Below are positions 1 through 30,178 of a stretch of 44,861 nucleotides of DNA, piece by piece. A program made the translations under genes and the position numbers. The notes under the pieces were generated by a model. It was given only the letters and a program-made list of their open reading frames with translations. It did no database searches and was not told the origin of the DNA. The stretch comes from Actinomycetota bacterium (lineage in GTDB: Bacteria; Actinomycetota; Actinomycetes; Nanopelagicales; Nanopelagicaceae). Every line of letters starts with the position of its first letter. The first letter of the stretch is position 1. The stretch is from contig JBEANJ010000004.1 of the NCBI GenBank assembly GCA_041165565.1, positions 1 to 44,861 of the forward strand. The letters are read 5' to 3'.

Positions 1-984
1 GTGACTGCTGATGCTCGCATTACTCCGGGTTGTCCGGGAATGTATACAAAAGAGCACACTGATGCCTGGACTCGAATAGTTGAATTTGTACATAACAACA
101 CCGATGCCAAAATCGCGTTACAAATTGGCCACGCTGGTGCGAAAGGCGCAACTAAGTTGGCTTGGGAAGGAATCGATAAGCCAGTTGAAAAAGACGGGTG
201 GCCGCTTGTCTCAGCCTCTGAACAACAATATCTTCCAGGAATTTCCCAAAAATCTCGAGCAGCAACCAAAGAAGATATGGAACGCATTAAAGCTGACTTT
301 GTACGTGCCACAATAGAAGGCGACAAATGCGGTTTCGATTGGTTGGAATTTCACGCAGCACACGGCTATTTCATTTCATCATTTATTTCACCGCTTACAA
401 ATAAGCGAACTGATGAATACGGTGGCTCTCTTGAAAATAGGTTGCGTTATCCAATTGAGGTTTTTAAAGCGATGCGAGCCGTCTGGCCAAATGGCAAACC
501 CATGAGCGTTCGTATCAGCGCTCACGATTGGGTTGATGGCGGAATTACCCCGGATGATGCTGTTGAAATAAGCAGAGCATTCAAAGAAGCAGGGGCTGAC
601 TTCATCGATGTTTCATCGGGCCAGGTATCAAAAGAGGAAAAACCTGTATATGGACGCATGTTCCAAACTCCTTTTGCTGATCGAATTAGAAATGAAGCTG
701 GAATCTCGACAATCGCAGTTGGTGCAATTTCTGAGGCCGATCACGCAAATACCATCATCGCGGCAGGTCGAGCTGATTTATGCGCGGTAGCAAGACCACA
801 TCTAGCAAATCCAGCTTGGACGTTAATGGAAAGTGCAAAATCCGGCTTCTTAGATATTGGTTGGCCGAAACAATATCTATCTGGAAAGGTGCAACTTGAG
901 CGAAATCTTGAGCGCGAGAAGTTAATTGCAGAAGCAGCTAAATCGAGTATGACCTTTGAGGAAATCCAAGCTAAATTCGGATAA
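1..984 (+). CDS. NADH:flavin oxidoreductase, Old Yellow Enzyme (YqjM-like) TIM-barrel domain. It is 5'-truncated by the window edge. It may be the reductase half of a bifunctional aryl-CoA monooxygenase/reductase.
   Basis: The frame is open to base 1. OYE motifs are present: LQIGHAGAKG, EFHAAHGYFISSFISPLTNKRTDEYGGSLENRLRYP and the C-terminal ARPHLANPAW...WPKQY. The fusion idea is inference only, because the N-terminus lies outside the window. Confidence 0.8.
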   Translation: MTADARITPGCPGMYTKEHTDAWTRIVEFVHNNTDAKIALQIGHAGAKGATKLAWEGIDKPVEKDGWPLVSASEQQYLPGISQKSRAATKEDMERIKADFVRATIEGDKCGFDWLEFHAAHGYFISSFISPLTNKRTDEYGGSLENRLRYPIEVFKAMRAVWPNGKPMSVRISAHDWVDGGITPDDAVEISRAFKEAGADFIDVSSGQVSKEEKPVYGRMFQTPFADRIRNEAGISTIAVGAISEADHANTIIAAGRADLCAVARPHLANPAWTLMESAKSGFLDIGWPKQYLSGKVQLERNLEREKLIAEAAKSSMTFEEIQAKFG

Positions 985-1000
985 GCAGTTTTGTTGAAAA

Positions 1001-1798
1001 TTAACGGTAAGGCGAGAAGTCAGGTGGGCGCTTTTCCGTAAAGGCTTTGCCACCTTCTTTGGATTCATCTGTTGCGGTGTAAAGATCTAAGACATCAAAA
1101 GCTAAAGATTGAATGCCCATAATGTGATCGGTATCTGCATTAAATGAGTGCTTTAACGCCTTGATAGCAGTGGGAGATAGCGCAACAACTTTCTTCGCCC
1201 ACTCCATAGCTGATTCCATCAATTTATCTGAAGGGACCACTTTATTAACTAGCCCCCAGCGCTCAGCAGTATTGGCATCATATTGTTCGCAGAGAAACCA
1301 AATCTCTCTTGCCCTTTTCTCGCCAACAACTCGCGCCAAATAGGCAGAACCAAATCCGGCATCAAAAGAACCGACTCTTGGACCAACTTGACCGAATCGA
1401 GCGCTCTCAGAAGCAATAGAGAGATCAGCGAGAACATGAAGAACATGGCCTCCGCCTATTGCAAATCCATTTACAGCTGCAATCACAGGCTTGGGAATCG
1501 CACGAATTATTTTATGTAATGCTTCAATTTCAAACATTCCAGTTTCAGTCTCACCATAATTTCCTTTTTCGGCTCGCTCTTTTTGATCGCCGCCGGTACA
1601 AAATGCCTTCTCGCCCGCACCCGTAAGGATTACTGCTCCAACTTTTTTGTCTACCCAAGCAAATTTGAACGCGGAGAGCAACTCATCAACTGTGCGACCG
1701 CGAAGTGCGTTATATCGATCCGGACGATTGATAGTGATCGTGGCGACCCCATCGCTGATTTGGTATTTAATATCAGTGAAGTCGGATTTCTCAATCAT
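1001..1798 (-). CDS. Crotonase-superfamily enzyme of the MenB/BadI subgroup (1,4-dihydroxy-2-naphthoyl-CoA synthase / 2-ketocyclohexanecarboxyl-CoA hydrolase-like)
   Basis: 265 aa. It carries ITINRPDRYNAL, the AFCTGGDQK motif typical of MenB/BadI, and VNGFAIGGGHVLHVLADL. The ATG is at 1798. Confidence 0.85.
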   Translation of the reverse strand: MIEKSDFTDIKYQISDGVATITINRPDRYNALRGRTVDELLSAFKFAWVDKKVGAVILTGAGEKAFCTGGDQKERAEKGNYGETETGMFEIEALHKIIRAIPKPVIAAVNGFAIGGGHVLHVLADLSIASESARFGQVGPRVGSFDAGFGSAYLARVVGEKRAREIWFLCEQYDANTAERWGLVNKVVPSDKLMESAMEWAKKVVALSPTAIKALKHSFNADTDHIMGIQSLAFDVLDLYTATDESKEGGKAFTEKRPPDFSPYR

Positions 1799-1838
1799 GT
1801 CGAGATACTACTCCGAAGTTGAATTGAATAACCAGAAA

Positions 1839-3029: not shown

Positions 3030-3037
3030 GGGGATGA

Positions 3038-3075
3038 TTATCCCTGATAAGTTAAGGTTCTCAGACAAATTAAGG
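3038..3075. promoter_or_regulatory. Candidate operator elements in the 58-bp divergent thiolase/SDR control region
   Basis: There is an inverted repeat TTATC-cct-GATAA (3038-3050) and a direct repeat TTAAGG (3052-3057 and 3070-3075). No cognate regulator is visible in the window. Confidence 0.2.
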
Positions 3076-3087
3076 ATAGGAAGCTCT

Positions 3088-3864
3088 GTGAGCAACAACC
3101 GGCAGTTACGTGTGCTCATTACGGGTGCTGGTCGCGGAATTGGACGTGCAATCGTAAATGAGCTCAAGGTTTCGCCTCTAAAACACAAAATTGCAGTTAC
3201 TGCGCGAACAGAATCAGAATTACAGGATTCAATAAAGGGCGCTTCCGGAGAAACTTTAGTTATCGCAGCAGACTTGCTTGACTCCAAGTCACCCTCCCAA
3301 ATTATTGAAAAGGTCGTAGAGAAATTTGGCGGTTTGGATTTTCTAGTTCTAAATGCAGGAGATGGAATTTCTGCCACTATCGAATCTACTGATGACGAAT
3401 TATGGAATCGAACGATGGAATTAAATGCAACGGCGCCTTTCCGCTTTATTCGATCTGTCGCTCCAATTATGCGCGAACAAGGCGGCGGAAAGATTGTAAT
3501 TGTGGCTAGCGAGGCGGGTCTTCATGGGGCCGCTAATGTCGCGGCATATTCGGCATCCAAGCACGCTATCGTTGGATTGATGCGTAGCGCGGCCGCTGAA
3601 TTGTCTCGAGATAAAATTCAAGTAAATGCGGTCTGCCCAATATTTGTCGATACCCCAATGATGCAACGAAGCGTCGAAGCTGCTGCTGCAAGAACTGGTA
3701 AGAGCGTTGATGAAGTAAGAACCACATTGGCTTCACGCCAGCCAGGTGGTCGAGTTTTAACTCCAGAAGAAGTCGCTTCTGCTGTAGTTTCATATTTGAA
3801 TGTTGATACTTCTGGTGAAGCGAAATATCTAGATGGTAGTAATACGAATGGAGCAAGTAGATGA
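3088..3864 (+). CDS. Short-chain dehydrogenase/reductase (3-hydroxyacyl-CoA / 3-oxoacyl reductase-like)
   Basis: I chose the GTG at 3088 because it is preceded by AAGGATAGGAAG. ATGs at 3028 and 3034 are alternatives. Motifs are VLITGAGRGIGRA, NAG, and YSASKHA (YxxxK). The ORF-track N-terminal extension is antisense to the thiolase. Confidence 0.85.
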   Translation: MSNNRQLRVLITGAGRGIGRAIVNELKVSPLKHKIAVTARTESELQDSIKGASGETLVIAADLLDSKSPSQIIEKVVEKFGGLDFLVLNAGDGISATIESTDDELWNRTMELNATAPFRFIRSVAPIMREQGGGKIVIVASEAGLHGAANVAAYSASKHAIVGLMRSAAAELSRDKIQVNAVCPIFVDTPMMQRSVEAAAARTGKSVDEVRTTLASRQPGGRVLTPEEVASAVVSYLNVDTSGEAKYLDGSNTNGASR

Positions 3865-4256
3865 ACTTCGAGCGAATTAATCCAGAAAATTTAGCTGCGC
3901 CAATTGGCTTCTCGCACGCCGTCGCTGTTGAGGGTAAGCGGATAATTTTCTTAGCCGGACAAACCTCAATGGAAAAGAGTGGTGGAATTGTTGGTAATGG
4001 AATTGTCGAACAGTTCGAGCGAGCTCTATCAAATCTTTTAATCTCACTAAAAGCATCAGGTGGCACACCTGACTCACTAACAAAATTAACTATTTTTTCT
4101 GTTGACCCAGAAGATTATCGAGCTCATGCTAAAGAAATCGGGTCAGTCTGGAAACGATTGGTAGGTAGAGATTATCCAGCGATGACGCTCGTCGGAGTCA
4201 CGAGATTATGGGATAAAGAGGCGTTAATCGAGATTGAAGGGTATGCCGCGATCTAA
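3861..4256 (+). CDS. ridA: RidA/YjgF/UK114-family reactive enamine/imine deaminase
   Basis: 131 aa, with GFSHAVAVEGKRIIFLAGQT and the C-terminal ALIEIEGYA pattern. Its ATGA start overlaps the SDR stop. Confidence 0.85.
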   Translation: MNFERINPENLAAPIGFSHAVAVEGKRIIFLAGQTSMEKSGGIVGNGIVEQFERALSNLLISLKASGGTPDSLTKLTIFSVDPEDYRAHAKEIGSVWKRLVGRDYPAMTLVGVTRLWDKEALIEIEGYAAI

Positions 4257-6319
4257 TGTCGCAGGCAATCGCAAAACTTTGGCGCGCTAAATCCATCGCC
4301 ATAATTGGTGCTTCAGAGCGCGAAGGAGCAATGTCGCGACTCCCAATTTCCTACCTAAAGAAATATGGATTTGAAGGCGAAATTTTTCCGGTAAACCCCA
4401 AAGGTGGCGAAATTGCTGGAATTGCTGCCTATAAATCTGTAAAGGATATTCCAAAGCAAGTCGAATTAGCTTTGATTATGGTTCCAGTGGATGCGGCTAA
4501 ATCTGCAGTCCAAGAATGTGCGGAAGCCGGAATCGCAATTGTTACGGTTATGGGATCTGGTTTCGCAGAGAGTGGCGAATCTGGCAAACAGCTTCAAGAT
4601 GAGATTGTTTCGATAGCAAAAGAATTCGGGATGCGTGTGGTTGGACCTAACTGCATCGGCTCAATTGGAAGCGAAGCCAGACTGTTAGCTACTTTTTCAC
4701 CAGTCTTCGCTTCAGATTCGACCGAGTTGGCAAAAAGTGGATTAGCCTTAATAAGTCAATCAGGTGCTCTTGGTTATGGAACCTATTCTCTTGGTATTGA
4801 CCGCTCGCTTCCGATCGGAATTGTAGTAACGACCGGTAATGAGGCAGATGTAACTGCGCTAGACGTTGCAAAAACTATCGCTGATGATGGTTCTGTTGCT
4901 GGAATCTTGATTTATGCGGAATCCATCGATGATTTAGATACGTTGGAATATGTTGCTAAGGCAAAACCAACTGCCGTTTTGAAATCCGGTCGTTCTGAGG
5001 CTGGTGCGCGAGCCGCTGAATCACATACTGGCGCTCTCGCTACTAGCGATCGAGTGATGGATGCGGCAATAAAGCGTGCTGGTGCGGTTAGGGTAAATGA
5101 TGTAGAAGAGTTGTTAGATGCCGGATCAATTTTTGCGACCAAGAAACGTCTTCTTGGAAATCGAATCGCAGTAATAACTACCTCAGGCGGTAGCGGAATT
5201 CTCGCAGCCGACGCGATAGAGAAGTATGGTCTTGAATTAGCTCGGCTATCAAAGCAAACTCGAGATGAACTCGATCAAATAATTCCTTCTTACGGCTCCT
5301 CGGCCAATCCAGTTGATCTCACCGCGGCTGTCATGTCAGATAGAGAACTATTCAAAAGAGCAATTCGGGTATTGAGCCAGGATCCTGGAATCGATGCAAT
5401 TGTCGCGGCCTTCTGTGTGCTGGTTGGCGAAGATGTAGAAATGATTGCAAATACTTTAGATTCCGTAAATCGCGAGGCAGGTGAAAAGCTTCCCATAGTT
5501 ATTGCGCGCACTGGATCGCCATCTCTTGCGCCTTCCGCAGGAAAATTATTTAGTGAAGCAAACTTGCCGACTTTTCCAGTGCCCGAACGAGCAGTCAGAG
5601 CGCTCGCTTTGCTAAGAAGAATTTCCCAATTAAATTCAAAAGGCGTTTCTAGAGCTCAAAATCAAATTACTCCTGCGCTTTCGGAACCTACCTCGGGAGT
5701 CACCGAGCGGGAGTTAAAGGAATTGTGGCGACAATCAGGTATTTCGGTACCTGAAAATATATTGATAGAAAATTCTTCCGAAGCGAGTGACGCGGTCAAG
5801 TCAGTTGGTGGCAGAGCAGTTATGAAAGTCGTTATCCCCGGCGTAATGCATAAGACTGAAATTGGAGGCGTACTTCTTGATATTGACGAGAGGGCCGCAG
5901 AGAGTTCGGCAAGAAAATTATTTGCACTAAGCGATTCCGCAAAAGTGATGGTGGAGAGATTTGTTCCCAAAGGAGTTGAAGCTTTGGTTGGAATCACAAC
6001 TTCCCCTCTTGGCAAAGTACTTACTGTGGGAGTAGGTGGAGTACTCACAGAAGTTATTCGTGATTCTGCTCTTAGAATTCTTCCCGTAACTAAAGATGAT
6101 GTTGAAGAGATGTTGAATGAGACACGTTTAGGGCAATTAATTGAGGGGGTGCGTGGCGAAAAGCCGGGAGATCGAGCCGCTCTAGTTGAGACTATCCTTC
6201 GCATTAGTGAGGCAACGGCGAACTGGCAGGGAGATTTCGAATTGGATGTAAACCCTGTAACGGTCACTACTGAGGGAGCTTGGGTCCTTGATAGTGCGTA
6301 TGTCAGACGCAAGAATTAA
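4256..6319 (+). CDS. ADP-forming (NDP-forming) acyl-CoA synthetase, fused alpha-beta type (acetate--CoA ligase [ADP-forming] family)
   Basis: 687 aa. The N-terminal CoA-binding domain reads KSIAIIGASEREG...VGPNCIG. The phosphohistidine loop reads AAESHTGALA. The C-terminal ATP-grasp reads AVMKVVIPGVMHKTEIGGV. Its TAATG start overlaps the RidA stop. Confidence 0.85.
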   Translation: MSQAIAKLWRAKSIAIIGASEREGAMSRLPISYLKKYGFEGEIFPVNPKGGEIAGIAAYKSVKDIPKQVELALIMVPVDAAKSAVQECAEAGIAIVTVMGSGFAESGESGKQLQDEIVSIAKEFGMRVVGPNCIGSIGSEARLLATFSPVFASDSTELAKSGLALISQSGALGYGTYSLGIDRSLPIGIVVTTGNEADVTALDVAKTIADDGSVAGILIYAESIDDLDTLEYVAKAKPTAVLKSGRSEAGARAAESHTGALATSDRVMDAAIKRAGAVRVNDVEELLDAGSIFATKKRLLGNRIAVITTSGGSGILAADAIEKYGLELARLSKQTRDELDQIIPSYGSSANPVDLTAAVMSDRELFKRAIRVLSQDPGIDAIVAAFCVLVGEDVEMIANTLDSVNREAGEKLPIVIARTGSPSLAPSAGKLFSEANLPTFPVPERAVRALALLRRISQLNSKGVSRAQNQITPALSEPTSGVTERELKELWRQSGISVPENILIENSSEASDAVKSVGGRAVMKVVIPGVMHKTEIGGVLLDIDERAAESSARKLFALSDSAKVMVERFVPKGVEALVGITTSPLGKVLTVGVGGVLTEVIRDSALRILPVTKDDVEEMLNETRLGQLIEGVRGEKPGDRAALVETILRISEATANWQGDFELDVNPVTVTTEGAWVLDSAYVRRKN

Positions 6320-6347
6320 CGCAGAAAATTTCGAAAGGAGATAGTAA

Positions 6348-7789
6348 GTGGACGTTGGAACGATAGTCGCCCGCTCCATGCGGCGATATCGAGATCGCGT
6401 TGCGCTTATTGGCCCAGACGGAACAAAAACTTATGGTGAGGTTGGCGCGAGAATTTTTCAACTCGCGCGCGCACTTCGCTCATTAGGACTTGAGACAGAA
6501 GATCGAGTTCTTGACCTTCAATCTAATCAGAATACCTACATTGAAACTGATCTAGGTATCTCTTCTGCCGGTCTTTGTCGCGTTGCTCTCAATTATCGAC
6601 TTCATCCAAATGACTGGGTCCGCATTACTAGAGACTGTGGAGCAAGAGTCCTGATACTTGATGCGAAATTTTGGGATGACGCTGCTCCCATACGAGAATT
6701 GGTTGAACACATAATCGTAATCAATGGTGATGGAGATGGCGCCATCCCCTATGAGAAGTTTCTTGGGAAAGAATCAACCGAGCCGTTGAAGATTGCGATC
6801 TCTCCTGACACCTTGGTTTCACTCAACTACTCCAGCGGTACAACCGGAAACCCCAAAGGTGCGATTCGCACACATAGAAATCGGATGGCAAGTCTTGGAA
6901 ATATTGTCACTGATATTTTTAAACGTACGCCAAATGAGAATGACATTTGGGTACATGCCGGCCCCGTCACTCACACAAGTGGCCTTTTTGTGCTGCCATA
7001 CTTCACATTCGGCGCCAAACAAGTTATTCACGCAAAATATGAACCTGAGTTACTTCTGGAGGAGATTGAGAAGCGAGGCGCAAATGCCACCGCGCTTGTC
7101 CCTACCATGGTGGCAAGACTTCTAACTCTTGATGGAGTAACCCCTGAGAGATTTAAGAATCTTAAGATGCTTGGTTATGCCGGCGCCCCAATGCCTCCCG
7201 AACAGATTAGAGAATGTTTTGAAAATATAACTACCCATATGGTCCAGTACTACGGATTAGTTGAAGCTATTCCCCCAGTCACCGTATTAAGTGAGGCTGA
7301 CCATCGGTTGGGTCTAGAAAAATCTCCAGAAGTTTTAACGAGCGCGGGAAATCCTTGCACGACCGTGGAAATTAAAATCGTAGATGAGGACGGAAAAGAA
7401 GTTGCTAATGGTGAAATCGGCGAGGTAATAACTCGCGGCGATCTTGTGATGCGTGGTTACTTTGGCGCGGCCGGAAGTGATCCCAACGTAACTAAAGTGG
7501 TGCGCGATGGGTCATAGCCGAAGTAACTGAAATAAATGAAGTAGCCGTTCTGGGAGCTCCGGACAAAGAATGGGGACAGCGCGTGACGGCTTTTGTCTCA
7601 CTTAAGCCAAATTCTTCGATAGATGAGAAAATCGTTGTCGAAAAAATTCTTGAGCACTGCAAATCCAAAATGGCGTCATACAAAAAGCCGAAGGATGTGT
7701 TTGTTGTTAAAGAGTTTCCGCTGAACTCAACTGGAAAAATTTCAAAGAAAACTTTGAAACTACAACTCGAGAAAGATCGTGGTGCATAA
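6348..7789 (+). pseudogene. AMP-dependent acyl/aryl-CoA ligase, disrupted by a frame change plus an internal deletion of the A7/A8 hinge region
   Basis: The GTG start follows GAAAGGAG. Frame A (6348-7517) carries YSSGTTGNPKGA (A3) and QYYGLVEA (A5), then stops at ...VVRDGS*. The C-terminal domain continues in another frame from about 7508 (WVIAEVTEINEVAVLGAPDKEWGQRV...PLNSTGKISKK, A10). The expected W-x-TGD and D-R-x-K-D...GG-x-N motifs are absent. Confidence 0.7.
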
Positions 7790-10795: not shown

Positions 10796-10837
10796 GTGCT
10801 CTATCTTGCCATGCAGAATCCCGCTTAGATAGGACTT

Positions 10838-13252: not shown

Positions 13253-13422
13253 CAATATCTCCTTTATCGGGGCCTTCCGTCGACCCATTCGTGAGTAAAG
13301 ATGTCACCATTTCGATATCTTCACAAGGGGGTTTCCACTAGACATGGCGCACACCATTGGCGAGACTTCCCTCCAGGCTTGGCTACTGCCTGGCTAGGTT
13401 GCTTAGTAAAAAGGGGAGTGAG

Positions 13423-20431: not shown

Positions 20432-20520
20432 TTAAGTCATTCCCCATCTGTTTGCAATTCATCGAAAGTTCTCATTTATATCTTCGTGAATGAAGTATAA
20501 AGAACGGGGCGCACCGCTTA

Positions 20521-20557
20521 TTGGCGGGCGCCCCGTTCATCACTAACCGTGATTATT
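20521..20557 (-). terminator. Strong GC-rich intercistronic hairpin, an attenuator/partial terminator between the binding-protein gene and the membrane/ATPase genes
   Basis: Perfect 11-bp arms, GAACGGGGCGC...GCGCCCCGTTC, plus an inner CCGC/GCGG pair. On the minus strand it is followed by TTTATACTT. It sits in the 131-bp gap after the SBP stop. Confidence 0.6.
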
Positions 20558-20562
20558 TACCC

Positions 20563-22670: not shown

Positions 22671-23099
22671 TTAAGCTAGCGCGGCATCCAGCGTAATTAC
22701 GGCGCTTGAAAAAAGTTTCGAGACTGGGCAAGTCTTCTTAGCTCTCTCGGCATAGGAAACAAACTCATCATTAGAACAAGACTGGTTTTTGCCTCGCGCA
22801 ACTAAATGGACTTCGGTTATATAAAAGCCATCGCTTTTCTGTTCTAAAGTAACTTTGGCTGAAGTTTCAATCGACCCAACATTTAAGCCTGCATCTTCCA
22901 AAATGCTGGTGAGCGCCATCGAAAAACAACCAGCATGGGCTGCGCCCAACATCTCTTCCGGATTTGTACCGGCATTTTCTTCGGTGCGAGACTTTAGGGA
23001 GAACGGAATTGTGGTTCCATTTCGGCCAAGCGTCATCGATCCAGTTCCTGTGGGTACCGGTCCGTTCCAAATCGCGCTAGCGTAGCGAAGTATCTTCAT
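22671..23099 (-). CDS. osmC: OsmC-family peroxiredoxin / organic hydroperoxide reductase-like protein
   Basis: 142 aa, with NPEEMLGAAHAGCFSMAL and KKTCPVSK (the two conserved Cys). Confidence 0.85.
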   Translation of the reverse strand: MKILRYASAIWNGPVPTGTGSMTLGRNGTTIPFSLKSRTEENAGTNPEEMLGAAHAGCFSMALTSILEDAGLNVGSIETSAKVTLEQKSDGFYITEVHLVARGKNQSCSNDEFVSYAERAKKTCPVSKLFSSAVITLDAALA

Positions 23100-23118: not shown

Positions 23119-23125
23119 AGCTCTC

Positions 23126-23887
23126 ATGGAGCCTGGAGTTGTTTATACCTCCCAAACCTTAGCAAAGGATCGAATCAAGCGTCGCGGTGACGCAACTTGT
23201 TACGAAATCGTCAAAACAGATTTTTATGTAGAAGCTATTAGCGCAATTGACTTACACCTTTCAGGAAGTACGCCGTCTGTCAAGGCTGATAAATCTGATG
23301 TACTTATCTTTGTTAGAGAAGGAAACGGAGTACTTCAAACTGGTAGTGAAATAATCGAACTCTCCAGAGGCACGGCTGTACAAATAAAAAGTGGTGAGAG
23401 TTTTCAATACGAAAATGGAGATAATCTAAAACTGATTGAGGTATACATACCAGATGCAAGTGGGCCATTCGGAAAAAGATTAACTTCACCGACTTCTGGA
23501 TTTGTTCGCTCGGTTCAGCAGGGAATTTCTTCAAAAGGCAGCGCTACCGGCAATCGAGAATTCGAAGTTTTATTTGACGCTGAAAGAGGTTGTGCCAGCG
23601 CAACAATGTTTGTTGGATTTATTCCCACTTCAGGAGCGCCCGCTCACTTTCATCTTTATGATGAAATCTGCCAAATAATTTCAGGTCAAGGACAACTGGA
23701 AACTTATGGCAAAGTACAAGACTTAATTCCCGGCTCTACTTTTGCTGTAGTGCCTCGAATGTTGCATTCCCTTATAAACAATCGTGATGAAGATCTTTGG
23801 GTGCTCGGAGTATTTCGCCCCCAGGGCTCCCCAGCCGCCGCCTATTACCCCGATGGCAGGCCTGCCCCCGGCTATACCGAGGCATAG
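23126..23887 (+). CDS. Bicupin protein. The C-terminal cupin has a metal site and the N-terminal cupin is degenerate. The substrate is unknown.
   Basis: 253 aa. The C-terminal module reads GAPAHFHLYDE...RMLHSL (HxH...E...H). The N-terminal module lacks the His ligands. Confidence 0.65.
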   Translation: MEPGVVYTSQTLAKDRIKRRGDATCYEIVKTDFYVEAISAIDLHLSGSTPSVKADKSDVLIFVREGNGVLQTGSEIIELSRGTAVQIKSGESFQYENGDNLKLIEVYIPDASGPFGKRLTSPTSGFVRSVQQGISSKGSATGNREFEVLFDAERGCASATMFVGFIPTSGAPAHFHLYDEICQIISGQGQLETYGKVQDLIPGSTFAVVPRMLHSLINNRDEDLWVLGVFRPQGSPAAAYYPDGRPAPGYTEA

Positions 23888-23962: not shown

Positions 23963-23992
23963 CCACAATCCCTACACGAAAGGAACTTCTAC

Positions 23993-25126
23993 GTGAAGCT
24001 TTTCTCCAAGCTCGGCGCAGTCGTGGCTTCTAGTGCACTTGCACTAACAGGCCTCGTTGCGATTGCAACTCCCGCTAAAGCGGCAGACTGCACCGGAACT
24101 ATCGCCATCATGGCGCCACTAACCGGTGGAGTTGCGTTTATTGGTAAAGAACAATCAGGTTTTGCACAAGTTGCAATTGATGATGTCAATGCCAAGAATG
24201 GTTCAAAAATTACTTTTAAAGAGTACGACACCCAGCTTGATGCGGCTCAAGCAGCCACACAAGCCCCAAACATCGTCGCAAATAAAGATGTAATCGGAGT
24301 TGTCGGTCCAGCAGGTAGCCAGGAAGTTCTAGCTGTCGGCGGTCTTTTCGGCGCAAATAACATTGCCGTAGTAAGCCCATCAGCAACTCGTACCAACCTA
24401 ACTGCAGGAACTTATCCTTCATTCTTCCGCCCAATTCCAAATGACGGATTACAAGGCCCTGGTAACGCTCGTTACATGGTCCAGAAATTGAAGGCTAAGG
24501 AAGTTGCAGTTATTGAAGAGAAGACTGCATACGGAACTGGTCTCGCCAAGGAATTTATGGATGAGATGAAGAAGCTTCGCGTCAAAGCAACCAATTACGC
24601 AGTTAATGAAAAGAATGCAGATTATGCAGCTGTCGTAACTCGTATTTCAAAGACTGCAGATTTCGTATTCGTAACCTTCCAGGATGCAGCGAAGTCACAG
24701 CAAGTTGCACAGGAATTGATTAAGCAGAAGAAGAAGGCAGTTGTATTCGGCTCTGACGGATCTGATCAACCAACCTTCAAGACTCCTGGAACATATGTTT
24801 CAGGATTCGCTCCTGATGTTAGCGGTCTAAAGGTTGCTGCATCCGCAGTTGCTGCTTACAAGGCAAAGTCTGGCGCGACCAGCATCACCACTTTCGGACC
24901 ACCTGCATATGTAGCAGCTCAGGTAATTGCTGAGGCTGCAGTTCGTGCATGTGCTGCCGGAAAAACTGGCGATCGTGCAACCGTCCTAGCTGAAATCAAG
25001 AAGACCAAGATTAAGAAGACGATCTTGGGCGGCCCACTCGAATTCACCGCTACTGGCGATGTGAAGGGTGGACGTTTCTACATCTTCCAGACTCAGAAAG
25101 ATGGCTCACGCAAGTCAATTGGCTAG
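23993..25126 (+). CDS. ABC transporter substrate-binding protein, LivJ/LivK family (secreted, not a lipoprotein)
   Basis: It has a GTG start and a signal peptide ending TPAKA/AD. The pattern is IAIMAPLTGGVAFIGKE...DDVNAKNG. Confidence 0.9.
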   Translation: MKLFSKLGAVVASSALALTGLVAIATPAKAADCTGTIAIMAPLTGGVAFIGKEQSGFAQVAIDDVNAKNGSKITFKEYDTQLDAAQAATQAPNIVANKDVIGVVGPAGSQEVLAVGGLFGANNIAVVSPSATRTNLTAGTYPSFFRPIPNDGLQGPGNARYMVQKLKAKEVAVIEEKTAYGTGLAKEFMDEMKKLRVKATNYAVNEKNADYAAVVTRISKTADFVFVTFQDAAKSQQVAQELIKQKKKAVVFGSDGSDQPTFKTPGTYVSGFAPDVSGLKVAASAVAAYKAKSGATSITTFGPPAYVAAQVIAEAAVRACAAGKTGDRATVLAEIKKTKIKKTILGGPLEFTATGDVKGGRFYIFQTQKDGSRKSIG

Positions 25127-25149
25127 TCGCTAATTGAATAATTAATGAA

Positions 25150-25191
25150 CTAGGAGGCGGCAGTCTTGAATTGCCACCTCCTAGTTCTTTT
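25150..25191 (+). terminator. Intercistronic hairpin plus T-tract after the SBP gene (attenuator/partial terminator)
   Basis: CTAGGAGGCGGCA-N9-TGCCACCTCCTAG (13 bp with one mismatch), followed by TTCTTTT. Confidence 0.6.
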
Positions 25192-25206
25192 AGCGAAAGA
25201 AAGCGG

Positions 25207-26124
25207 ATGGAATACCTCGGTCAACAATTAATCAATGGGTTAACGCTCGGTGGCGTGTACGCGCTAATTGCCTTGGGTTACACCTTGGTTTACGGGGTGC
25301 TACAGATTTTGAATTTTGCCCACGGCGATGTTTATATGATCGGGGCGTTTCTTGGATTCTTTGCAATGACTTGGCTGGGCGGACCACTTGCTCCAACGGT
25401 ACCGGTGGCGCTGATGCTTTTGGTCATGTTCTTGGTTGCAATGATGGGAACTGGCCTATTAGGAATAGTAATTGAGCGATTTGCCTATCGACCGTTAAGA
25501 AATTCCACGCGAATCGCCCCGCTGATAAGCGCTCTCGGAGTTTCTATCTTGCTTCAAAATGGCGCGCTTCTAATTTTCTCACCAAGTATTAGATCGTACG
25601 ACACCTCTTCCTACATACCCTCAACAGCTGGCATTTCAGTAGGAGGGGTAACACTTGATTCAGTTAGATTTGGCGTACTTGCTCTATCAGCGCTCTTGAT
25701 GATTCTTCTTACTAAGTGGGTGAATGGAACCCAAGTTGGCCGCGCAATGCGAGCTATCGCATACGATAAAGATGCCGCAGTAATGATGGGAATTGATGTC
25801 GATAGAGTAATTCGTTGGACGTTTTTCGTTGGCGCCGCTCTCGCTGGAGCTGCCGGGGTAATGAATGGACTTCTTCTACGTGGCGTATCTAGCGGTATGG
25901 GCTTAATACCTGGGCTAAAAGGATTTACTGCTGCAGTTATCGGAGGTATTGGTTCGGTGCCTGGTGCGATGCTCGGCGGTTTACTACTTGGCGTAATTGA
26001 GAGTTTGGCTCAAGGTTATCTATCTACAAACTTCGCCGACACGATTACTTTCATCTTGTTAATCACCTTTATGCTCTTTAGACCAAATGGAATATTGGGA
26101 CGTCCGATGATGGTGAAGGTATGA
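25207..26124 (+). CDS. livH: ABC transporter permease (LivH-like)
   Basis: I trimmed to the ATG at 25207 (MEYLGQQLINGLTLGGVYALIALGYTLVYG). The sequence LNFAHGD is present. Confidence 0.85.
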   Translation: MEYLGQQLINGLTLGGVYALIALGYTLVYGVLQILNFAHGDVYMIGAFLGFFAMTWLGGPLAPTVPVALMLLVMFLVAMMGTGLLGIVIERFAYRPLRNSTRIAPLISALGVSILLQNGALLIFSPSIRSYDTSSYIPSTAGISVGGVTLDSVRFGVLALSALLMILLTKWVNGTQVGRAMRAIAYDKDAAVMMGIDVDRVIRWTFFVGAALAGAAGVMNGLLLRGVSSGMGLIPGLKGFTAAVIGGIGSVPGAMLGGLLLGVIESLAQGYLSTNFADTITFILLITFMLFRPNGILGRPMMVKV

Positions 26125-27548
26125 GTAACTTAGGAATTGGAACAGATGAATGGGTCGCCCAGCACGAAGAGCGCCTAGCTAGCCAATCTCCACTGAAGAA
26201 GTTATTTGATCGGATACCACTCTGGGCAAAGTGGGGATCATTCTTCGTGATTGCTTTTATCTTTGGAGCTCTCTCAGATAACCAGTACTTGCTTCGCGTG
26301 GGTGTAAATCTGGCTCTCTTTATAATGTTGTCTTACGGATTAAATATTGTGGTTGGTTACGCGGGAATTTTAGATCTGGGATATGTCGCTTTTTATGGAT
26401 TTGGTGCATATGGATATGCGCTACTTTCCTCAGAACAACTAGGACAGCATTGGCCCACTTATATAACAGTTCCATTTATCACAATTTTGACGGCGCTACT
26501 TGGATACCTAATTTCACTGCCTTCGCGCCGCCTATTTGGCGATTATCTAGCAATCGTAACTCTCTTCTTCGGCCAAGTTTTTGTTCAACTTGTCTTAGCG
26601 TCAGATAACATCACATTTCCGTGGGCAGATGATTATGTTGATATAACCGCAGGTTCTAATGGAATTCCCGGATTAGATACTTTTAATCTCTTTGGATTCG
26701 TCTTTGATGATATTAAAGATTATTACTGGTTGCTTATGGCTATTGTCCTATTTCTAACAATTGCAATCCATCGAGTGAGCGCAACGCGAATTGGAAGGGC
26801 TTGGCGAACTGTCCGCGAAGATGCATTGGTCTCCGAAGTCATGGGCGTTAGCGTTAATCGTGTTAAAACAATTGCATTTGTCGCTGGTGCAACCATCGCC
26901 GGCTTTGCAGGAACGATCTTTGCGGGAATGCAGACTGCAGTTTTCATAAATGGCTTCGACTTACCGCTTATGATCATGATTTATGCCGCTGTAATTCTAG
27001 GTGGCAGCGGTAGCCTTGCTGGAGCGCTAATTGGTGCGATTATCATGACAATTCTTCCTGAATTACTGCGTGTTCCTAATTACGGCGCAATATTATTCTT
27101 TGTTGCTTTGATATTAACTTTCTTTGTAATCAGCAAGAAATTCTCGCGCTTCTTAATTAATATAGCCTCGATTATTGCAATAGGTTTTGTATTTCAATTC
27201 TTGATGAAAGCACTAACTATCAATCAGGCAAACGCGGAAGATTGGGTAGTTGGATTTACTGGAAACCTCCTTAAGAATTGGTTATTCGTTCCAGAAAATA
27301 GAATCCTTTGGGGTAATTTTGCCTTTATAGTTTTACTTACTCTGGTCGCAATTTTTTCGATCTCAAAACCTATCTGGAAGAAATTGCTTCTGCCGTTTAT
27401 CGGCTTCGCCGCGATTTTCTTATGGGAGGTAAGGCTTATTGCTGATGTAAGCACCACGCGTCAGCTAATCATTGGAGCGATGTTAGTTGTACTTATGATT
27501 CTGCGCCCACAAGGTCTATTCGGACAGACAAGAGTGGAAATCCTCTAA
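26121..27548 (+). CDS. livM: ABC transporter permease (LivM-like) with extra hydrophobic segments near the C-terminus
   Basis: 475 aa, with an ATGA overlap onto livH. The core reads LNIVVGYAGILDLGYVAFYGFGAY. The canonical ending, ILRPQGLFG, appears only after about 110-130 additional hydrophobic residues. Confidence 0.85.
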   Translation: MSNLGIGTDEWVAQHEERLASQSPLKKLFDRIPLWAKWGSFFVIAFIFGALSDNQYLLRVGVNLALFIMLSYGLNIVVGYAGILDLGYVAFYGFGAYGYALLSSEQLGQHWPTYITVPFITILTALLGYLISLPSRRLFGDYLAIVTLFFGQVFVQLVLASDNITFPWADDYVDITAGSNGIPGLDTFNLFGFVFDDIKDYYWLLMAIVLFLTIAIHRVSATRIGRAWRTVREDALVSEVMGVSVNRVKTIAFVAGATIAGFAGTIFAGMQTAVFINGFDLPLMIMIYAAVILGGSGSLAGALIGAIIMTILPELLRVPNYGAILFFVALILTFFVISKKFSRFLINIASIIAIGFVFQFLMKALTINQANAEDWVVGFTGNLLKNWLFVPENRILWGNFAFIVLLTLVAIFSISKPIWKKLLLPFIGFAAIFLWEVRLIADVSTTRQLIIGAMLVVLMILRPQGLFGQTRVEIL

Positions 27549-28327
27549 TGCTGAAATTATCGAACATTTCTATGGAGTTTGGGGCGCTAAAAACTCTAAA
27601 TGATTTAAGTGTTGAATTGAAAGAGCGAGAAATAGTTAGCGTAATTGGGCCAAATGGCGCTGGAAAAACTACCTTATTCAATGTCATTACCGGGTTATAC
27701 AAACCGACTAGCGGCAGCGTTCAACTTGATTCGAAAGAGATTCTGGGGCTTTCGCCGGCTGAGATTAATCGCGCGGGAATTGCTCGAACTTTCCAAAATG
27801 TACGGCTCTTCTTAAATATGTCTGTCTTAGAGAACGTTATGTCCGCGACCTTCGGTAGAACCCGATCCGGCATATTCTCTTCTGCTCTAGGCTTGAAGCG
27901 AAGCAGACGAGAGGAAGCTGAAGTAAGAGAGAAGGCCCAGGAACTTTTGAAGTTTTTTGGTACCCGACTTACTGGCTACCGTTGGGATCAACCTGCTTAC
28001 TCACTTTCCTACGCAAATCGACGTCGCCTTGAAATTGCAAGGGCGCTTGCGACTGATCCAAAAGTTTTACTTTTAGATGAACCAGCCGCCGGTATGAATC
28101 CTAAAGAGACTCAAGAGATAACCGAGATTGTGGGAAGTCTTAGAGCCGAAAGAGGCTTGACGATTTTAATTATTGAACACGATATGCACGTTGTTGAAGG
28201 CGTTAGCGATCGCGTGGTTGCCTTAGATTACGGAGTAAAGATAGCTGAAGGAGATTTTGATCAGGTGGCAACGCATCCCGCTGTAGTAGAGGCTTATCTA
28301 GGAAAAGGGAGTACCGCTACTAAATGA
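27548..28327 (+). CDS. livG: ABC transporter ATP-binding protein (LivG-like)
   Basis: Walker A is GPNGAGKTT, the signature is LSYANRRRLE and Walker B is LLLDEPAAGM. Confidence 0.9.
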   Translation: MLKLSNISMEFGALKTLNDLSVELKEREIVSVIGPNGAGKTTLFNVITGLYKPTSGSVQLDSKEILGLSPAEINRAGIARTFQNVRLFLNMSVLENVMSATFGRTRSGIFSSALGLKRSRREEAEVREKAQELLKFFGTRLTGYRWDQPAYSLSYANRRRLEIARALATDPKVLLLDEPAAGMNPKETQEITEIVGSLRAERGLTILIIEHDMHVVEGVSDRVVALDYGVKIAEGDFDQVATHPAVVEAYLGKGSTATK

Positions 28328-29034
28328 GTGAATCATTATTAAAGATGGAAAATGTCGATACTTTCTATGGAGCTATCCATATTCTCCAGAAAGTAAATCT
28401 AGAAGTTGGAACCGGCGAGCTCGTTTGTCTCTTAGGCGGTAACGCTTGCGGCAAATCAACCACACTTAAAACCATTCTTGGAATAGTGAAACCAAAATCT
28501 GGAACCATCACATTTGCAGGCGAAGATGTCACAAAAGTAGGCACCCCTGGAAGAGTGAAATTGGGTATGGCAGTAGTCCCTGAAAATAGAAGGCTCTTCG
28601 CCCCAATGACAGTCCTTGAGAATTTAAAGTTAGGCGCATACGTTCGAGGCGAAGCAGACCCTGCTGATCTAGAGAGAGTCTTCGAACTCTTTCCAAAACT
28701 TCGCGACCGCCAGAGTCAATTAGCAGGAACTCTATCTGGTGGCGAACAGCAGATGGTTGCGGTCGGTCGCGCTTTGATGTCTAGACCAAAATTAATTCTC
28801 ATGGATGAACCTTCGATGGGATTGGCGCCTAAGTTCGTTGAACAAAGTTTTGAGATGATCTCAAATCTTCATAAGAGCGGTGTCTCGATGTTGGTGGTCG
28901 AACAGAATGCAAATATGGCGTTAGCTATTGCGGATCGCGGTTATGTCCTACAGACCGGGCGAGTAGTATTGACGGGAAGTGCGAAAGAGCTATCTGGCCA
29001 CGAAGAGTTACGAAAGGCATACCTTGGACGTTAA
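28324..29034 (+). CDS. livF: ABC transporter ATP-binding protein (LivF-like)
   Basis: The P-loop is the variant GGNACGKST, the signature is LSGGEQQ and Walker B is ILMDEPS. The start has an ATGA overlap. Confidence 0.9.
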   Translation: MSESLLKMENVDTFYGAIHILQKVNLEVGTGELVCLLGGNACGKSTTLKTILGIVKPKSGTITFAGEDVTKVGTPGRVKLGMAVVPENRRLFAPMTVLENLKLGAYVRGEADPADLERVFELFPKLRDRQSQLAGTLSGGEQQMVAVGRALMSRPKLILMDEPSMGLAPKFVEQSFEMISNLHKSGVSMLVVEQNANMALAIADRGYVLQTGRVVLTGSAKELSGHEELRKAYLGR

Positions 29035-30178
29035 GACTGATTTGTCGGTCAAATACCGAGTGGATTTTCCGGTATTTGAACATGTTACCTATTTGAACTC
29101 TTGTTCCCAAGGAGCAATATCTAAATCAGTCCGCCAGAGCTTTACGACATATTTAAATTCATTAGAGCTTCATGGTTCCACCTGGGGTGATTGGGCGGGA
29201 CAACAAGAGAAAGTACGCGGGCTTCTCGCAAAGTTGTTTAATGTATCTCCCGGCGAAATGGCAGTAACCACCTCTACTTCGGCAGCAGTCAGTTCGCTTG
29301 CTTCCGCCCTCGATTTTTCAACTAAACGAAATCGAATAGTTACAACGGATAATGAGTTCCCCGCAATTGGCCAGATCTGGCATGCGCAAGAACGTCGTGG
29401 CGCAAGAGTTACTCATGTGCCGAGTCGAGGCGATAACACAGTTGATGTCGACGCAATCTTAAAAGAAATCAATGAAGAAACACTTCTCGTTTCAATAACT
29501 CTAGTCTGCTTCCGAAATGGCGCGCTCACCGATATCGCTCCTATCATTGAAGCTGCAAAACGCGTTGGCGCTCTGGTACTACTCGACTCTTATCAAGGTG
29601 CGGGCGCTATGAATCTTGACCTCTCAAAAATAGGTGCTGACTTTGTCGTAGGTGGAGTCCTCAAATACATGTTAGGCGCCCCCGGCGTTGGATACATGTA
29701 CACAAAAGCTGAAACCACAAAGAATTTAATTCCAACTTCTACTGGATGGTTTGCCGCAAAAGATATTTTTAAAATGGGAATTCATGAATACGATCCTGCA
29801 CTAGATGCTAGACGTTTTGAGAGCGGAACTCCCCCTATTCCAAGTTTGTACCCAGCTGTTGCCGGCCTCGAATACCTCTTACAGGTTGGAATGGAAGAGA
29901 TTGTGGATTATGTAAGCCATCTTCATGAAGCACTAAGGTCTGGAATCGAAGAGTTAGGTGGTTCCATAGCCACTCCCGCCCATGCCCACGCTGCAATGTT
30001 GGCTGTTAGATCGACTGATGAAAACGCACTTGTTGCAGCTTTAGAGACTGAAAAGATCATCACCTCTTGCAGAGATGGAAATCTTCGAATCTCACCTCAC
30101 TTCTACAACAATATGGAAGATATAGATCTCACGATTAAAGCTTTAGGAAAATATAAGTCCCTGCTCAAAACTCCTTAA
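29024..30178 (+). CDS. Class-V-fold PLP-dependent enzyme, kynureninase-like
   Basis: The segment LLDSYQGAGAMNLDLSKIGADFVVGGVLKYMLGAPGVGYMY resembles the kynureninase PLP-lysine region (GADY..G..YKYLNxGPG) more than the SGHK of cysteine desulfurases. The start is uncertain. I propose the TTG at 29024, which follows GAAAGG and overlaps the livF stop. The ORF-track start at 28979 lies inside livF. Confidence 0.65.
   Translation: MDVKTDLSVKYRVDFPVFEHVTYLNSCSQGAISKSVRQSFTTYLNSLELHGSTWGDWAGQQEKVRGLLAKLFNVSPGEMAVTTSTSAAVSSLASALDFSTKRNRIVTTDNEFPAIGQIWHAQERRGARVTHVPSRGDNTVDVDAILKEINEETLLVSITLVCFRNGALTDIAPIIEAAKRVGALVLLDSYQGAGAMNLDLSKIGADFVVGGVLKYMLGAPGVGYMYTKAETTKNLIPTSTGWFAAKDIFKMGIHEYDPALDARRFESGTPPIPSLYPAVAGLEYLLQVGMEEIVDYVSHLHEALRSGIEELGGSIATPAHAHAAMLAVRSTDENALVAALETEKIITSCRDGNLRISPHFYNNMEDIDLTIKALGKYKSLLKTP

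Follow-up and report, generated by a model that had tools for sequence, protein, structure and literature searches.

Positions 1 to 30,178 of a 44,861-nucleotide stretch of contig JBEANJ010000004.1 from an Actinomycetota bacterium (the whole stretch being referred to as the window) hold what the window shows of a ~34.5-kb catabolic island in a Nanopelagicales-type (acI) freshwater actinobacterium. On balance, this island appears to funnel tryptophan-related indole-ring compounds through isatin to 2-aminobenzoyl-coenzyme A (CoA), from which CoA-dependent "hybrid" destruction of the ring would follow. The family identities of the genes, the fusion of two domains in one of the enzymes and the repeated co-localisation of the modules are direct observations from sequence and synteny, and the mechanism proposed from them falls into three parts. 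In the central part, a homologue of isatin hydrolase (the hydrolase) would act on isatin or a closely similar oxindole lactam and open it to isatinate (2-aminophenylglyoxylate), and an adjacent IOR-type thiamine diphosphate (ThDP)/Fe-S enzyme (the IOR) would use CoA to decarboxylate isatinate oxidatively and directly to 2-aminobenzoyl-CoA, by analogy with the conversion of phenylglyoxylate to benzoyl-CoA. Two CrtI/CrtO-like flavoproteins (FADox1 and FADox2) would probably oxidise a more reduced compound, an oxindole or dioxindole, to the dione. In the upper part, tryptophan or oxidised tryptophan would be imported by a LivJ-like ATP-binding cassette (ABC) system and oxygenated by a tryptophan 2,3-dioxygenase (TDO) and/or a bicupin, with an OsmC-family protein handling hydroperoxides, and a class V pyridoxal phosphate (PLP) lyase without the catalytic Cys would cut the C-beta/C-gamma bond to give either anthranilate, by kynureninase-type chemistry, or isatin and alanine. 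In the lower part, a fusion enzyme would dearomatise 2-aminobenzoyl-CoA, RidA and a MenB/BadI-like crotonase would deaminate and open the ring, and short-chain dehydrogenases (SDRs), a thiolase, an ADP-forming synthetase, an AMP-forming ligase and a B12 mutase of the methylmalonyl-CoA mutase (MCM) type would take the C7 chain to central acyl-CoAs.

A preliminary description of the same DNA had read it as a route from tryptophan through kynurenine and anthranilate into CoA-dependent "hybrid" degradation. All of the genes named there are real and were recovered by an open reading frame (ORF) listing and by Pfam and NCBIfam scans of positions 1 to 30,178, at or within a few codons of where they had been placed. 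The link to TDO, the fusion enzyme and the funnel into 2-aminobenzoyl-CoA are retained here; the KynB step was wrong and KynU is unproven. The gene list had also passed over the IOR, both flavoproteins, the B12 mutase, OsmC, the bicupin and the ADP-forming synthetase, and the model built on it was incomplete, since few members of the island are as tightly conserved as the IOR, flavoprotein and mutase genes that it ignored. Scores are given throughout as bits against the curated model cut-off (Pfam gathering thresholds, GA, and NCBIfam equivalog cut-offs), and other contigs and loci are cited by L numbers.

The hydrolase and its 2-oxoacid partner

The hydrolase aligned over its full length with the isatin hydrolases of Ralstonia and Labrenzia in the PDB (5nmp, 5nnb and 4j0n; E 2.5e-82 to 5e-75, ~50% identity). 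Its distance from RsIHA and LaIHA is about the same as that between the two verified enzymes LaIHA and LaIHB, again ~50% identity (PMC6117287). When the sequence was checked against the published determinants of isatin hydrolases (PMC6117287), the Mn motif HxG[T/A]HxDxPxH was found as HTGTHFDAPIH and the WXW/FXW pocket as WYW, and the triad D193, H207 and H79 was invariant in 9 sequences. The GLQC/GLAS signature is replaced by GLTQ in the window hydrolase and in all actinobacterial orthologues. On the KynB model TIGR03035 the protein scored 28 bits vs 223, over 90 residues only, and Thr stands where the I(L/I)E motif of KynB has its Glu for the binuclear Zn site. This cyclase-family enzyme is thus placed by its sequence with the isatin hydrolases and not with KynB, the formamidase for which it had at first been taken, and activity on isatin is predicted.

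A genome scan anchored on the hydrolase yielded 80 loci, one per species, in the Actinomycetota, onto which the window proteins were mapped by tblastn. Beside the hydrolase, both flavoproteins were found in 17 loci, the IOR alpha subunit in 14, the IOR beta subunit in 12, the fusion gene in 13-14 and a second SDR (SDR0) in 12. A tight core, SDR0-fusion-IOR beta-IOR alpha-hydrolase-FADox2-FADox1, recurs without the beta-oxidation genes in L009, L011, L015-L017 and L020. FADox2 is conserved at 38-71% identity in 17 loci and is co-directional with the IOR and the hydrolase in Embleya (L027); FADox1, for which the PDB match was phytoene desaturase (4dgk, E 1e-19), adjoins the hydrolase in 17 loci. 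Some 20 island genes recur in at least six gene orders, in genomes of 45-73% GC that range from the Nanopelagicales to the Nocardioidaceae, Actinoallomurus (L019) and Embleya (L027). Such co-localisation across many species and several gene orders puts the clustering far beyond chance, a mere juxtaposition being ruled out by the synteny, and the island can be taken as a functional unit.

Elsewhere, in 53 loci from Streptomyces, Nonomuraea, Blastococcus and others, the hydrolase gene is followed directly, on the same strand, by one for a ~545-aa ThDP enzyme of the acetolactate-synthase/benzoylformate-decarboxylase superfamily. The ThDP enzyme was the only real cluster (cluster 3) in an all-ORF neighbour clustering of the high-GC loci, which otherwise returned mostly spurious antisense ORFs. 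This ThDP enzyme and the IOR are mutually exclusive, being found in 53 and 14 loci, respectively, with 0 of 80 carrying both, a pattern that suggests non-orthologous displacement of one by the other. The hydrolase is therefore accompanied by a 2-oxoacid enzyme of either kind in 67 of the 80 loci, mostly without TDO or the PLP gene. Since this association is nearly constant, the simplest reading is that the product of the hydrolase would be a 2-oxoacid, isatinate, which agrees with the iad pathway, in which compounds having the formulae of isatinate (C8H7NO3) and 2-aminobenzaldehyde (C7H7NO) come before anthranilate (PMC9613470; bioRxiv 10.1101/2025.10.25.684584). Genomes of the ThDP type would decarboxylate isatinate, with oxidation and ligation to follow, and the IOR lineages would reach 2-aminobenzoyl-CoA in one step. 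In L066 and L070, the hydrolase-ThDP pair is found inside a fusion-gene cluster with a gene of the benzoate-CoA-ligase family.

Phenylglyoxylate:acceptor oxidoreductase (CoA-benzoylating, from Azoarcus evansii) and archaeal IOR are ThDP/Fe-S enzymes that convert aryl-2-oxoacids to aryl(acetyl)-CoA, and archaeal IOR is paired with an NDP-forming (ADP-forming) arylacetyl-CoA synthetase. The window enzyme, likewise accompanied by an ADP-forming synthetase, differs from these in that it consists of two subunits, the beta one containing DUF6537, and occurs in an aerobe, with isatinate as the proposed substrate. Its alpha subunit scored 253 bits vs 651 on the IOR equivalog TIGR03336. The strict adjacency of hydrolase and IOR, together with the replacement of the latter by the ThDP enzyme elsewhere, predicts a new activity, isatinate to 2-aminobenzoyl-CoA, that would give a ligase-free entry to aryl-CoA. 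A literature search returned no described enzyme that decarboxylates isatinate or acylates CoA with it, and no link of the Nanopelagicales to such a pathway.

Ring dearomatisation and the lower module

The ORF at the left edge of the window is the C-terminal third of a protein of 780-798 aa, which in near-identical contigs consists of an N-terminal flavin adenine dinucleotide (FAD) monooxygenase region and a C-terminal old yellow enzyme (OYE) domain. The window edge removes the FAD monooxygenase part, and the fragment that is left matches positions 456-764 of the 768 of the model NF006101. The full-length 780-aa copy in L001, the DNA of which is 99.6% identical over the shared part, scored 1305.7 bits vs 1078 over positions 19-764 and shows both domains, which places it in this family. 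The leftward fusion to an FAD aromatic hydroxylase, suggested as a check in the preliminary description, is thus real. The family comprises 2-aminobenzoyl-CoA monooxygenase/reductase (ACMR) and salicylyl-CoA 5-hydroxylase, the latter providing the NCBIfam name, and 2-aminobenzoyl-CoA rather than salicylyl-CoA would be the substrate here, judging by neighbours that make 2-aminoaryl compounds. Two versions of the fusion accompany the hydrolase, one ~75-80% identical to that of the window (L012, L018, L022 and L024) and one ~47-51% identical (L009, L011, L015-L017 and L020); they may be paralogues with different aryl-CoA preferences.

The genes for the crotonase, thiolase, SDR1, RidA, ADP-forming synthetase, AMP ligase and mutase are co-linear in L018, L022 and L091 and partly so in L066 and L070. 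The crotonase is conserved at 69-84% identity in L012, L018, L022, L070 and L091, and RidA is kept in L018, L022, L070 and L091. Family scans bore out the earlier naming of a MenB/BadI-like crotonase, a PaaJ/PcaF-like thiolase, an SDR and RidA. The crotonase fell short of two MenB models (359 vs 380 and 333 vs 343 bits) and of BadI (327 vs 468 bits); it appears to be a near-MenB paralogue kept in a catabolic cluster and is a candidate hydrolase for an alicyclic 2-oxo-ring CoA thioester. The thiolase scored 361 bits vs 597 on the pcaF model. Enamine deamination of the product of the fusion enzyme would fit RidA, and hydrolytic opening of the resulting 2-oxo ring would fit the crotonase.

In place of the single CoA ligase noted before, two CoA-activating genes were found, of which the AMP ligase is disrupted and neither is of the benzoate type. 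The ADP-forming synthetase scored 408 bits vs 567 on the AcCoA-syn-alpha model. Relative to four contigs 99.2-99.8% identical to the window, the AMP ligase gene carries a clean 121-bp deletion at 7510|7511 that shifts the frame and removes the stretch GWLYTGD...YPREIED (A7/A8), with tblastn placing residues 1-388 in frame 1 and residues 429-521 in frame 3. The deletion is an assembly artefact or else marks a pseudogene specific to the strain. No benzoate-type aryl-CoA ligase was detected in the window or in a 10-kb left extension; such ligases are present in L091, L066, L070 and L019.

The best PDB match of the mutase was HcmA, a 2-hydroxyisobutyryl-CoA mutase (HCM; 4r3u), with 424 bits vs 362 for MCM. 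It keeps the equivalents of MCM Tyr89 and Arg207 (QYgGF and iaRgt) and has Ala at the position of HCM Asp117. Genes for a B12-binding subunit (126 vs 57 bits in L001) and for a MeaB-like protein (140 bits vs a cut-off of 241, assigned to MeaB by Pfam) were located in L001-L008, ~2-4 kb left of the window (L001:14020-15239), on the far side of the fusion gene. These two genes make the mutase complete, and its N-domain, B12 subunit, MeaB and Tyr/Arg pair together are those of an MCM-type enzyme. The catabolic genes lie nested between the parts of the mutase. L066 and L091 retain the gene pair of ligase and mutase, together with MeaB and the B12 subunit, at 57-74% identity. The mutase could be a plain MCM acting on a product derived from propionyl-CoA or an arylsuccinyl-type mutase. 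Conversion of a 4-oxoacyl-CoA (4-oxopimelyl-CoA, as formed by ring opening, or a 4-aryl-4-oxobutanoyl-CoA) to a 2-methyl-3-oxoacyl-CoA for thiolysis was also considered and receives no support from the MCM-type Tyr and Arg. The gene set thereby offers candidates for a lower pathway: RidA, the MenB/BadI-like crotonase, two SDRs, the PcaF-like thiolase, the ADP-forming synthetase and the MCM-type B12 mutase.

Tryptophan-side genes and competing readings

The TDO surpasses the Pfam gathering threshold of 34.9 bits and scored 139 bits vs 390.7 on NCBIfam TIGR03036; with a probable start at M27, in line with homologues of 235-236 aa, it belongs to a short, divergent clade. It matched TDOs in the PDB with E 2.5e-24, and its residues F70, H74, Y132, R136, H209 and T224 align to F51, H55, Y113, R117, H240 and T254 of the Xanthomonas enzyme. 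Since these haem and tryptophan ligands are all kept, it is likely a genuine L-tryptophan-binding haem dioxygenase. Homologues are common in the Nanopelagicaceae. In L091 and L092 (65% identity; 21 similar places), TDO lies between SDR0 and the crotonase within a compact 20-kb cluster, in the order FADox1, FADox2, hydrolase, IOR alpha, IOR beta, fusion, SDR0, TDO, crotonase, thiolase, SDR1, RidA, ADP-forming synthetase, AMP ligase, mutase, benzoate-type ligase and MeaB. The order in L009 is TDO fragment, bicupin, OsmC, PLP, SDR0, fusion, IOR, hydrolase and flavoproteins. Its position inside these clusters links TDO functionally to the aryl-CoA block, as the preliminary description had proposed. 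In L089, the block TDO-OsmC-bicupin-ABC-PLP is kept as in the window. There, the TDO block comes after genes for a 352-aa stand-alone OYE, for a luciferase-like monooxygenase, for a flavin reductase and for one more CrtI-like flavoprotein (L089:5078-9926), and a 504-aa alpha/beta hydrolase follows the PLP gene; these extra genes may provide alternative oxygenation and formamidase functions.

The PLP enzyme fell below every NCBIfam cut-off, with 120 bits vs 475 for SufS and 79 bits vs 246 for the kynureninase TIGR01814. In single-sequence searches, its best PDB match was the Pseudomonas kynureninase 1qz9, level with desulfurases, and a 22-sequence profile likewise tied (130.5 bits for kynureninase vs 129.1 for desulfurase). 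Aligned to 4q75/4q76, the profile has a deletion exactly at the catalytic Cys loop of SufS (GHHCAQP in type II), so that a cysteine desulfurase (SufS/IscS) is ruled out. The sequence KYMLGAPG has the K+6 Pro spacing of kynureninases, with Leu-Lys in place of the kynureninase pair Tyr226-Lys227. Pfam KYNU_C gave 15 bits in the window protein and 27-28.5 in its orthologues (GA 27); homologues are of 384-392 aa, against 399 aa for the window ORF. Foldseek searches with an AlphaFold model (pLDDT 88.7) gave SufS and C-DES as nearest, and there was no kynureninase among the 50 matches listed. The protein would thus be a Cys-less class V PLP enzyme that cannot be placed beyond a position between kynureninase and SufS/C-DES. 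Of its earlier description as kynureninase-like, the class V PLP gene itself stands and identity as a kynureninase is unproven; the desulfurases, clustering with which had been named as grounds for doubt, are represented among the nearest folds by SufS, but the Cys loop is missing and the profile search tied.

Among cultured relatives, an operon in Pseudonocardia (L093) has the order permease-OsmC-bicupin-PLP-hydrolase, and one in Nakamurella (L094) bicupin-ABC-PLP-hydrolase-ThDP with a PaaX regulator; both are without TDO, and their order puts the PLP step directly before the hydrolase. The PLP enzyme may release isatin and alanine from oxidised tryptophan or, equally, parallel kynurenine-type and isatin-type feeds may enter one funnel. 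The C-terminal domain of the bicupin holds a complete HxH...E / H metal motif that is kept in a 5-sequence alignment. A PDB search gave no close solved homologue of the bicupin, and a single-sequence AlphaFold model (mean pLDDT 33.9) was unusable. OsmC accompanies the bicupin and PLP genes in L009, L089, L093 and L094. Two Liv-type importers are present, as had been described. The binding protein of importer 2 matched LivJ/LivK-type amino-acid binders (E 1e-24 to 1e-26), and the importer 2 block lies between the bicupin and PLP genes also in L089 and L094, which makes tryptophan uptake by this importer plausible, if unproven. Importer 1, conserved beside the cluster in L011, L012 and L023, has a binding protein only distantly like LivJ.

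It is tempting, though doubtful, to extend the funnel into a full, hitherto undescribed "isatin route" of tryptophan catabolism, from import to ring opening, in abundant lake Actinobacteria. Imported tryptophan or photo-oxidised tryptophan (oxindolyl- and dioxindolyl-alanine and their hydroperoxides) would be oxygenated by the TDO-like enzyme and/or the bicupin, OsmC would reduce the hydroperoxides, and a PLP lyase related to but distinct from kynureninase would release isatin and alanine by retro-aldol cleavage. The isatin hydrolase and a CoA-acylating isatinate:acceptor oxidoreductase would then give 2-aminobenzoyl-CoA without a ligase, with RidA, the MenB/BadI-type ring hydrolase and the B12 mutase serving the lower half of the 2-aminobenzoyl-CoA pathway.

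Several points weigh against the funnel through isatin. The source of isatin is hypothetical, and a genuine TDO yields N-formylkynurenine, from which isatin is not reached; the PLP enzyme cannot be assigned either to kynureninase or to SufS/C-DES. With GLTQ in place of GLQC/GLAS, the hydrolase could prefer another lactam or a formamide. The IOR alpha subunit is far below its equivalog cut-off, and indolepyruvate could equally be its substrate. Finally, the AMP ligase is frameshifted in the window, and the mutase, with its MCM-type Tyr and Arg, may be a plain methylmalonyl-CoA mutase.

The canonical kynurenine pathway (TDO, KynB and KynU), with anthranilate passing through a CoA ligase to the fusion enzyme and the IOR, flavoproteins and mutase as bystanders or parts of the lower pathway, is considered unlikely. 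It would account for a TDO with all its L-tryptophan and haem ligands, for the contiguity of TDO, PLP and fusion genes in L009 and L091, for the benzoate-type ligases in the four loci named above and for the kynureninase-like side of the PLP enzyme (its K+6 Pro spacing, the KYNU_C scores of its orthologues, the match to 1qz9 and the lack of a desulfurase Cys loop); in addition, KynB and isatin hydrolase have a common fold and metal motif (PMC6117287). The hydrolase nevertheless fails the KynB model, lacks the Glu of I(L/I)E and has the isatin cage as its pocket, and it keeps company with a 2-oxoacid enzyme where TDO and PLP genes are mostly missing. L093 and L094 pair the PLP enzyme and the hydrolase without TDO; the PLP enzyme itself scores low as a kynureninase, has Leu for Tyr226 and finds only SufS or C-DES in its top 50 Foldseek matches; and no aryl-CoA ligase lies in the window or its left extension.

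An aerobic counterpart of the iaa route of Aromatoleum, from tryptophan to 2-aminobenzoyl-CoA and on to the fusion enzyme, is less likely still. Here, the PLP or an FAD enzyme would form indolepyruvate, the IOR would convert this to indoleacetyl-CoA, oxygenation would give 2-oxindole-3-acetyl(-CoA), the isatin-hydrolase-like lactamase (2-aminophenyl)succinyl-CoA and the B12 mutase (2-aminobenzyl)malonyl-CoA, which flavoprotein, crotonase, SDR and thiolase would carry to 2-aminobenzoyl-CoA. Consistent with this are the IOR family name and its pairing with an ADP-forming synthetase, a ligase that resembles o-succinylbenzoate-CoA ligase, and the ligase and mutase genes kept next to each other along with those for MeaB and the B12 subunit (57-74%, L066 and L091). 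The mutase has the Tyr and Arg for carboxylate binding that would be expected with an arylsuccinyl-CoA, and a phenylsuccinyl/benzylmalonyl-CoA mutase is a precedent en route to 2-aminobenzoyl-CoA (PMC8360864). The cluster is also without an acyl-CoA dehydrogenase, for which the CrtI-like enzymes could stand in. Yet the core of SDR0, fusion, IOR, hydrolase and flavoproteins recurs with no mutase, crotonase or thiolase nearby, the two-gene module of hydrolase and ThDP enzyme in 53 loci ill fits a ThDP enzyme or IOR acting several steps before the hydrolase, and a TDO with an intact amino-acid-binding site is left unexplained.

Independent genes packed in a small streamlined genome, or a fusion enzyme acting as salicylyl-CoA 5-hydroxylase in a salicylate/gentisate route, would agree with the name of the best NCBIfam model, with several assignments at family level only and with a layout scattered over several transcription units with interleaved transporters, but this is very improbable given the recurrence of the genes in at least six arrangements across lineages and GC contents, the lack of a gentisate dioxygenase or thioesterase in the window, and neighbours (isatin hydrolase and TDO) that make 2-aminoaryl compounds.

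Related systems, island limits and regulation

Among known systems, the anthranilate-CoA pathway (abm/Rue61a) and the isatin route (iad) come nearest to the window cluster, in which the combination, with its IOR-type link and B12 mutase, is new. The actinobacterium Arthrobacter sp. Rue61a degrades anthranilate only by a CoA-thioester pathway, in which cyclohexanedione-carboxyl-CoA species were detected (PMC3534580, PMC4539516). The window shares with it and with abm of Azoarcus evansii (the abm genes being compared through secondary sources) the bifunctional FAD-monooxygenase/OYE as key dearomatising step, together with genes for a crotonase, a dehydrogenase, a thiolase and an ABC binding protein. 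In contrast to these systems, it has no benzoate-type anthranilate-CoA ligase and no regulator, and it adds the isatin-hydrolase homologue, the IOR, the two CrtI-like flavoproteins, RidA, the ADP-forming synthetase and the B12 mutase with MeaB.

In the iad pathway (Variovorax and Bradyrhizobium), indole-3-acetic acid (IAA) is degraded by way of dioxindole-type compounds, isatin and isatinate to anthranilate, with the participation of an amidase annotated as "kynurenine formamidase" (PMC9613470; bioRxiv 10.1101/2025.10.25.684584). Common to both are a cyclase-fold amidase for an oxindole lactam, an AMP ligase, a thiolase, an alcohol dehydrogenase and an ABC binding protein. The window cluster differs in having neither a Rieske dioxygenase nor MarR, in a 2-oxoacid:acceptor oxidoreductase adjoining the hydrolase and in a proposed end point of aryl-CoA rather than free anthranilate. 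It also holds TDO, the PLP enzyme and an amino-acid-type importer, which point to an amino acid rather than IAA as the substrate. The kynurenine pathway (KynA, KynB and KynU) is approached in the TDO with its tryptophan residues, the KynB-fold hydrolase and a class V PLP enzyme distantly related to kynureninase, but the model scores and active-site residues set both latter proteins apart, as does the tie of the hydrolase to 2-oxoacid enzymes in most genomes. The anaerobic iaa system of Aromatoleum (IaaB, IaaL, IaaGH and IaaF) resembles the window in a B12 acyl-CoA mutase beside a CoA-activating enzyme and in ending at 2-aminobenzoyl-CoA (PMC8360864). Homologues of its molybdenum hydroxylase, hydantoinase-like enzymes, CoA-transferase and IaaF acyl-CoA dehydrogenase are missing from the window, where the downstream enzyme is an O2-dependent fusion and not part of a reductive route. 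The acI/Nanopelagicales-type bacteria that carry the island rank with the most abundant bacterioplankton of fresh waters, and it therefore bears on which lake organisms consume tryptophan, indole, auxin-type and isatin-type compounds; through it, a bacterial connection of tryptophan with isatin also becomes testable.

The features of the island are collected in Table 1. An exact-protein look-up with the crotonase returned 22 contigs, and L001, L002, L003 and L005 are 99.2-99.8% identical to positions 1-11678 of the window. In such near-identical contigs, the island extends ~4.4 kb to the left with the N-terminal part of the fusion, SDR0, the B12-binding subunit and the MeaB-type GTPase, beyond which unrelated genes (UPF0114, PutA) mark its border. 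On the right, histidine-biosynthesis genes, gltBD and cobT from 30179 onward make the PLP gene the border. The GC content of the window is ~46%.

Table 1. Coordinates of the island features within the window.
Feature	Position	Strand	Basis
C-terminal OYE (flavin mononucleotide reductase) part of aryl-CoA monooxygenase/reductase	1..984	+	NF006101, 547 bits
MenB/BadI-like crotonase	1001..1798	-	ECH_1, 240 bits
Thiolase nearest 3-oxoadipyl-CoA thiolase, 396 aa	1839..3029	-	TIGR01930, 376 bits vs 241
Short-chain dehydrogenase SDR1, 258 aa	3088..3864	+	adh_short, 169 bits; gene call in L001
RidA-family enamine/imine deaminase	3861..4256	+	PF01042, 70 bits
ADP-forming (NDP-forming) acyl-CoA synthetase, fused alpha-beta	4256..6319	+	ATP-grasp_5, Succ_CoA_lig, CoA_binding
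AMP-forming acyl-CoA ligase (fatty-acyl/o-succinylbenzoate-CoA-ligase-like), disrupted	6348..7789	+	intact 520-aa orthologue in L001-L005
Coenzyme-B12 acyl-CoA mutase, large (substrate-binding) subunit	7794..9272	+	TIGR00641, 556 bits vs 304
CrtI/CrtO-like FAD oxidoreductase 1 (FADox1)	9269..10795	-	Amino_oxidase, NAD_binding_8; CrtO model, 195 bits vs 1000
CrtI/CrtO-like FAD oxidoreductase 2 (FADox2)	10838..12436	+	domain scans
Isatin-hydrolase-type Mn amidohydrolase, cyclase fold, 257 aa	12479..13252	-	PDB isatin hydrolases
IOR-type 2-oxoacid:acceptor oxidoreductase, alpha (ThDP) subunit	13357..15507	+	TPP_enzyme_C
IOR-type oxidoreductase, beta-family subunit (POR + DUF6537)	15464..17074	+	NF006179, 659 bits vs 348
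Liv-type ABC importer 1: two permeases, two ATPases, one binding protein	17060..21768	-	Pfam
TDO-family haem enzyme	21960..22667 (ORF opens at 21882)	+	PF03301, 99 bits
OsmC-family peroxiredoxin, organic hydroperoxide reductase type	22671..23099	-	TIGR03562, 148 bits vs 86
Bicupin, candidate oxygenase	23126..23887	+	Cupin_2, two stretches
Liv-type ABC importer 2: binding protein, two permeases, two ATPases	23993..29034	+	Pfam
Class V PLP enzyme without catalytic Cys	28979..30178	+	Aminotran_5, 143 bits

Gene calls in the near-identical contigs identified the long overlapping ORFs 1839-3377 (512 aa) and 2704-3864 as upstream over-extensions of the thiolase and SDR1 genes. There are overlaps of 44 nt between the two IOR ORFs (alpha and beta, 15464-15507) and of up to 56 nt between the PLP ORF and the ABC ATPase gene ahead of it (28979-29034), which suggest translational coupling or later true starts. 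The histidine genes are split within 30179-44818: hisG, hisE (31028-31291, 87 aa), hisI, hisF, hisA, hisH, hisB and hisC come first, next a DUF4864 gene with gltD-gltB, and then hisD, an SDR gene and cobT, which is cut by the window end.

Among window proteins from ORFs of at least 100 aa, Pfam and NCBIfam scans found no DNA-binding domain, and Rfam at its gathering thresholds found no riboswitch or RNA leader in the window, so that the earlier statement that the window holds no transcription factor was upheld. Save for a pseudogene remnant and hisE, the intergenic gaps are of ~135 bp or less, which leaves no room for a hidden regulator gene. The absence fits a streamlined Nanopelagicales-type genome and is unremarkable; low-GC freshwater lineages likewise have no regulator beside these modules. 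In large-genome relatives, regulators adjoin the same modules, with TetR and HTH_3-cupin proteins in Pseudonocardia (L093) and a PaaX-family repressor in Nakamurella (L094), the latter suggesting an aryl-CoA effector.

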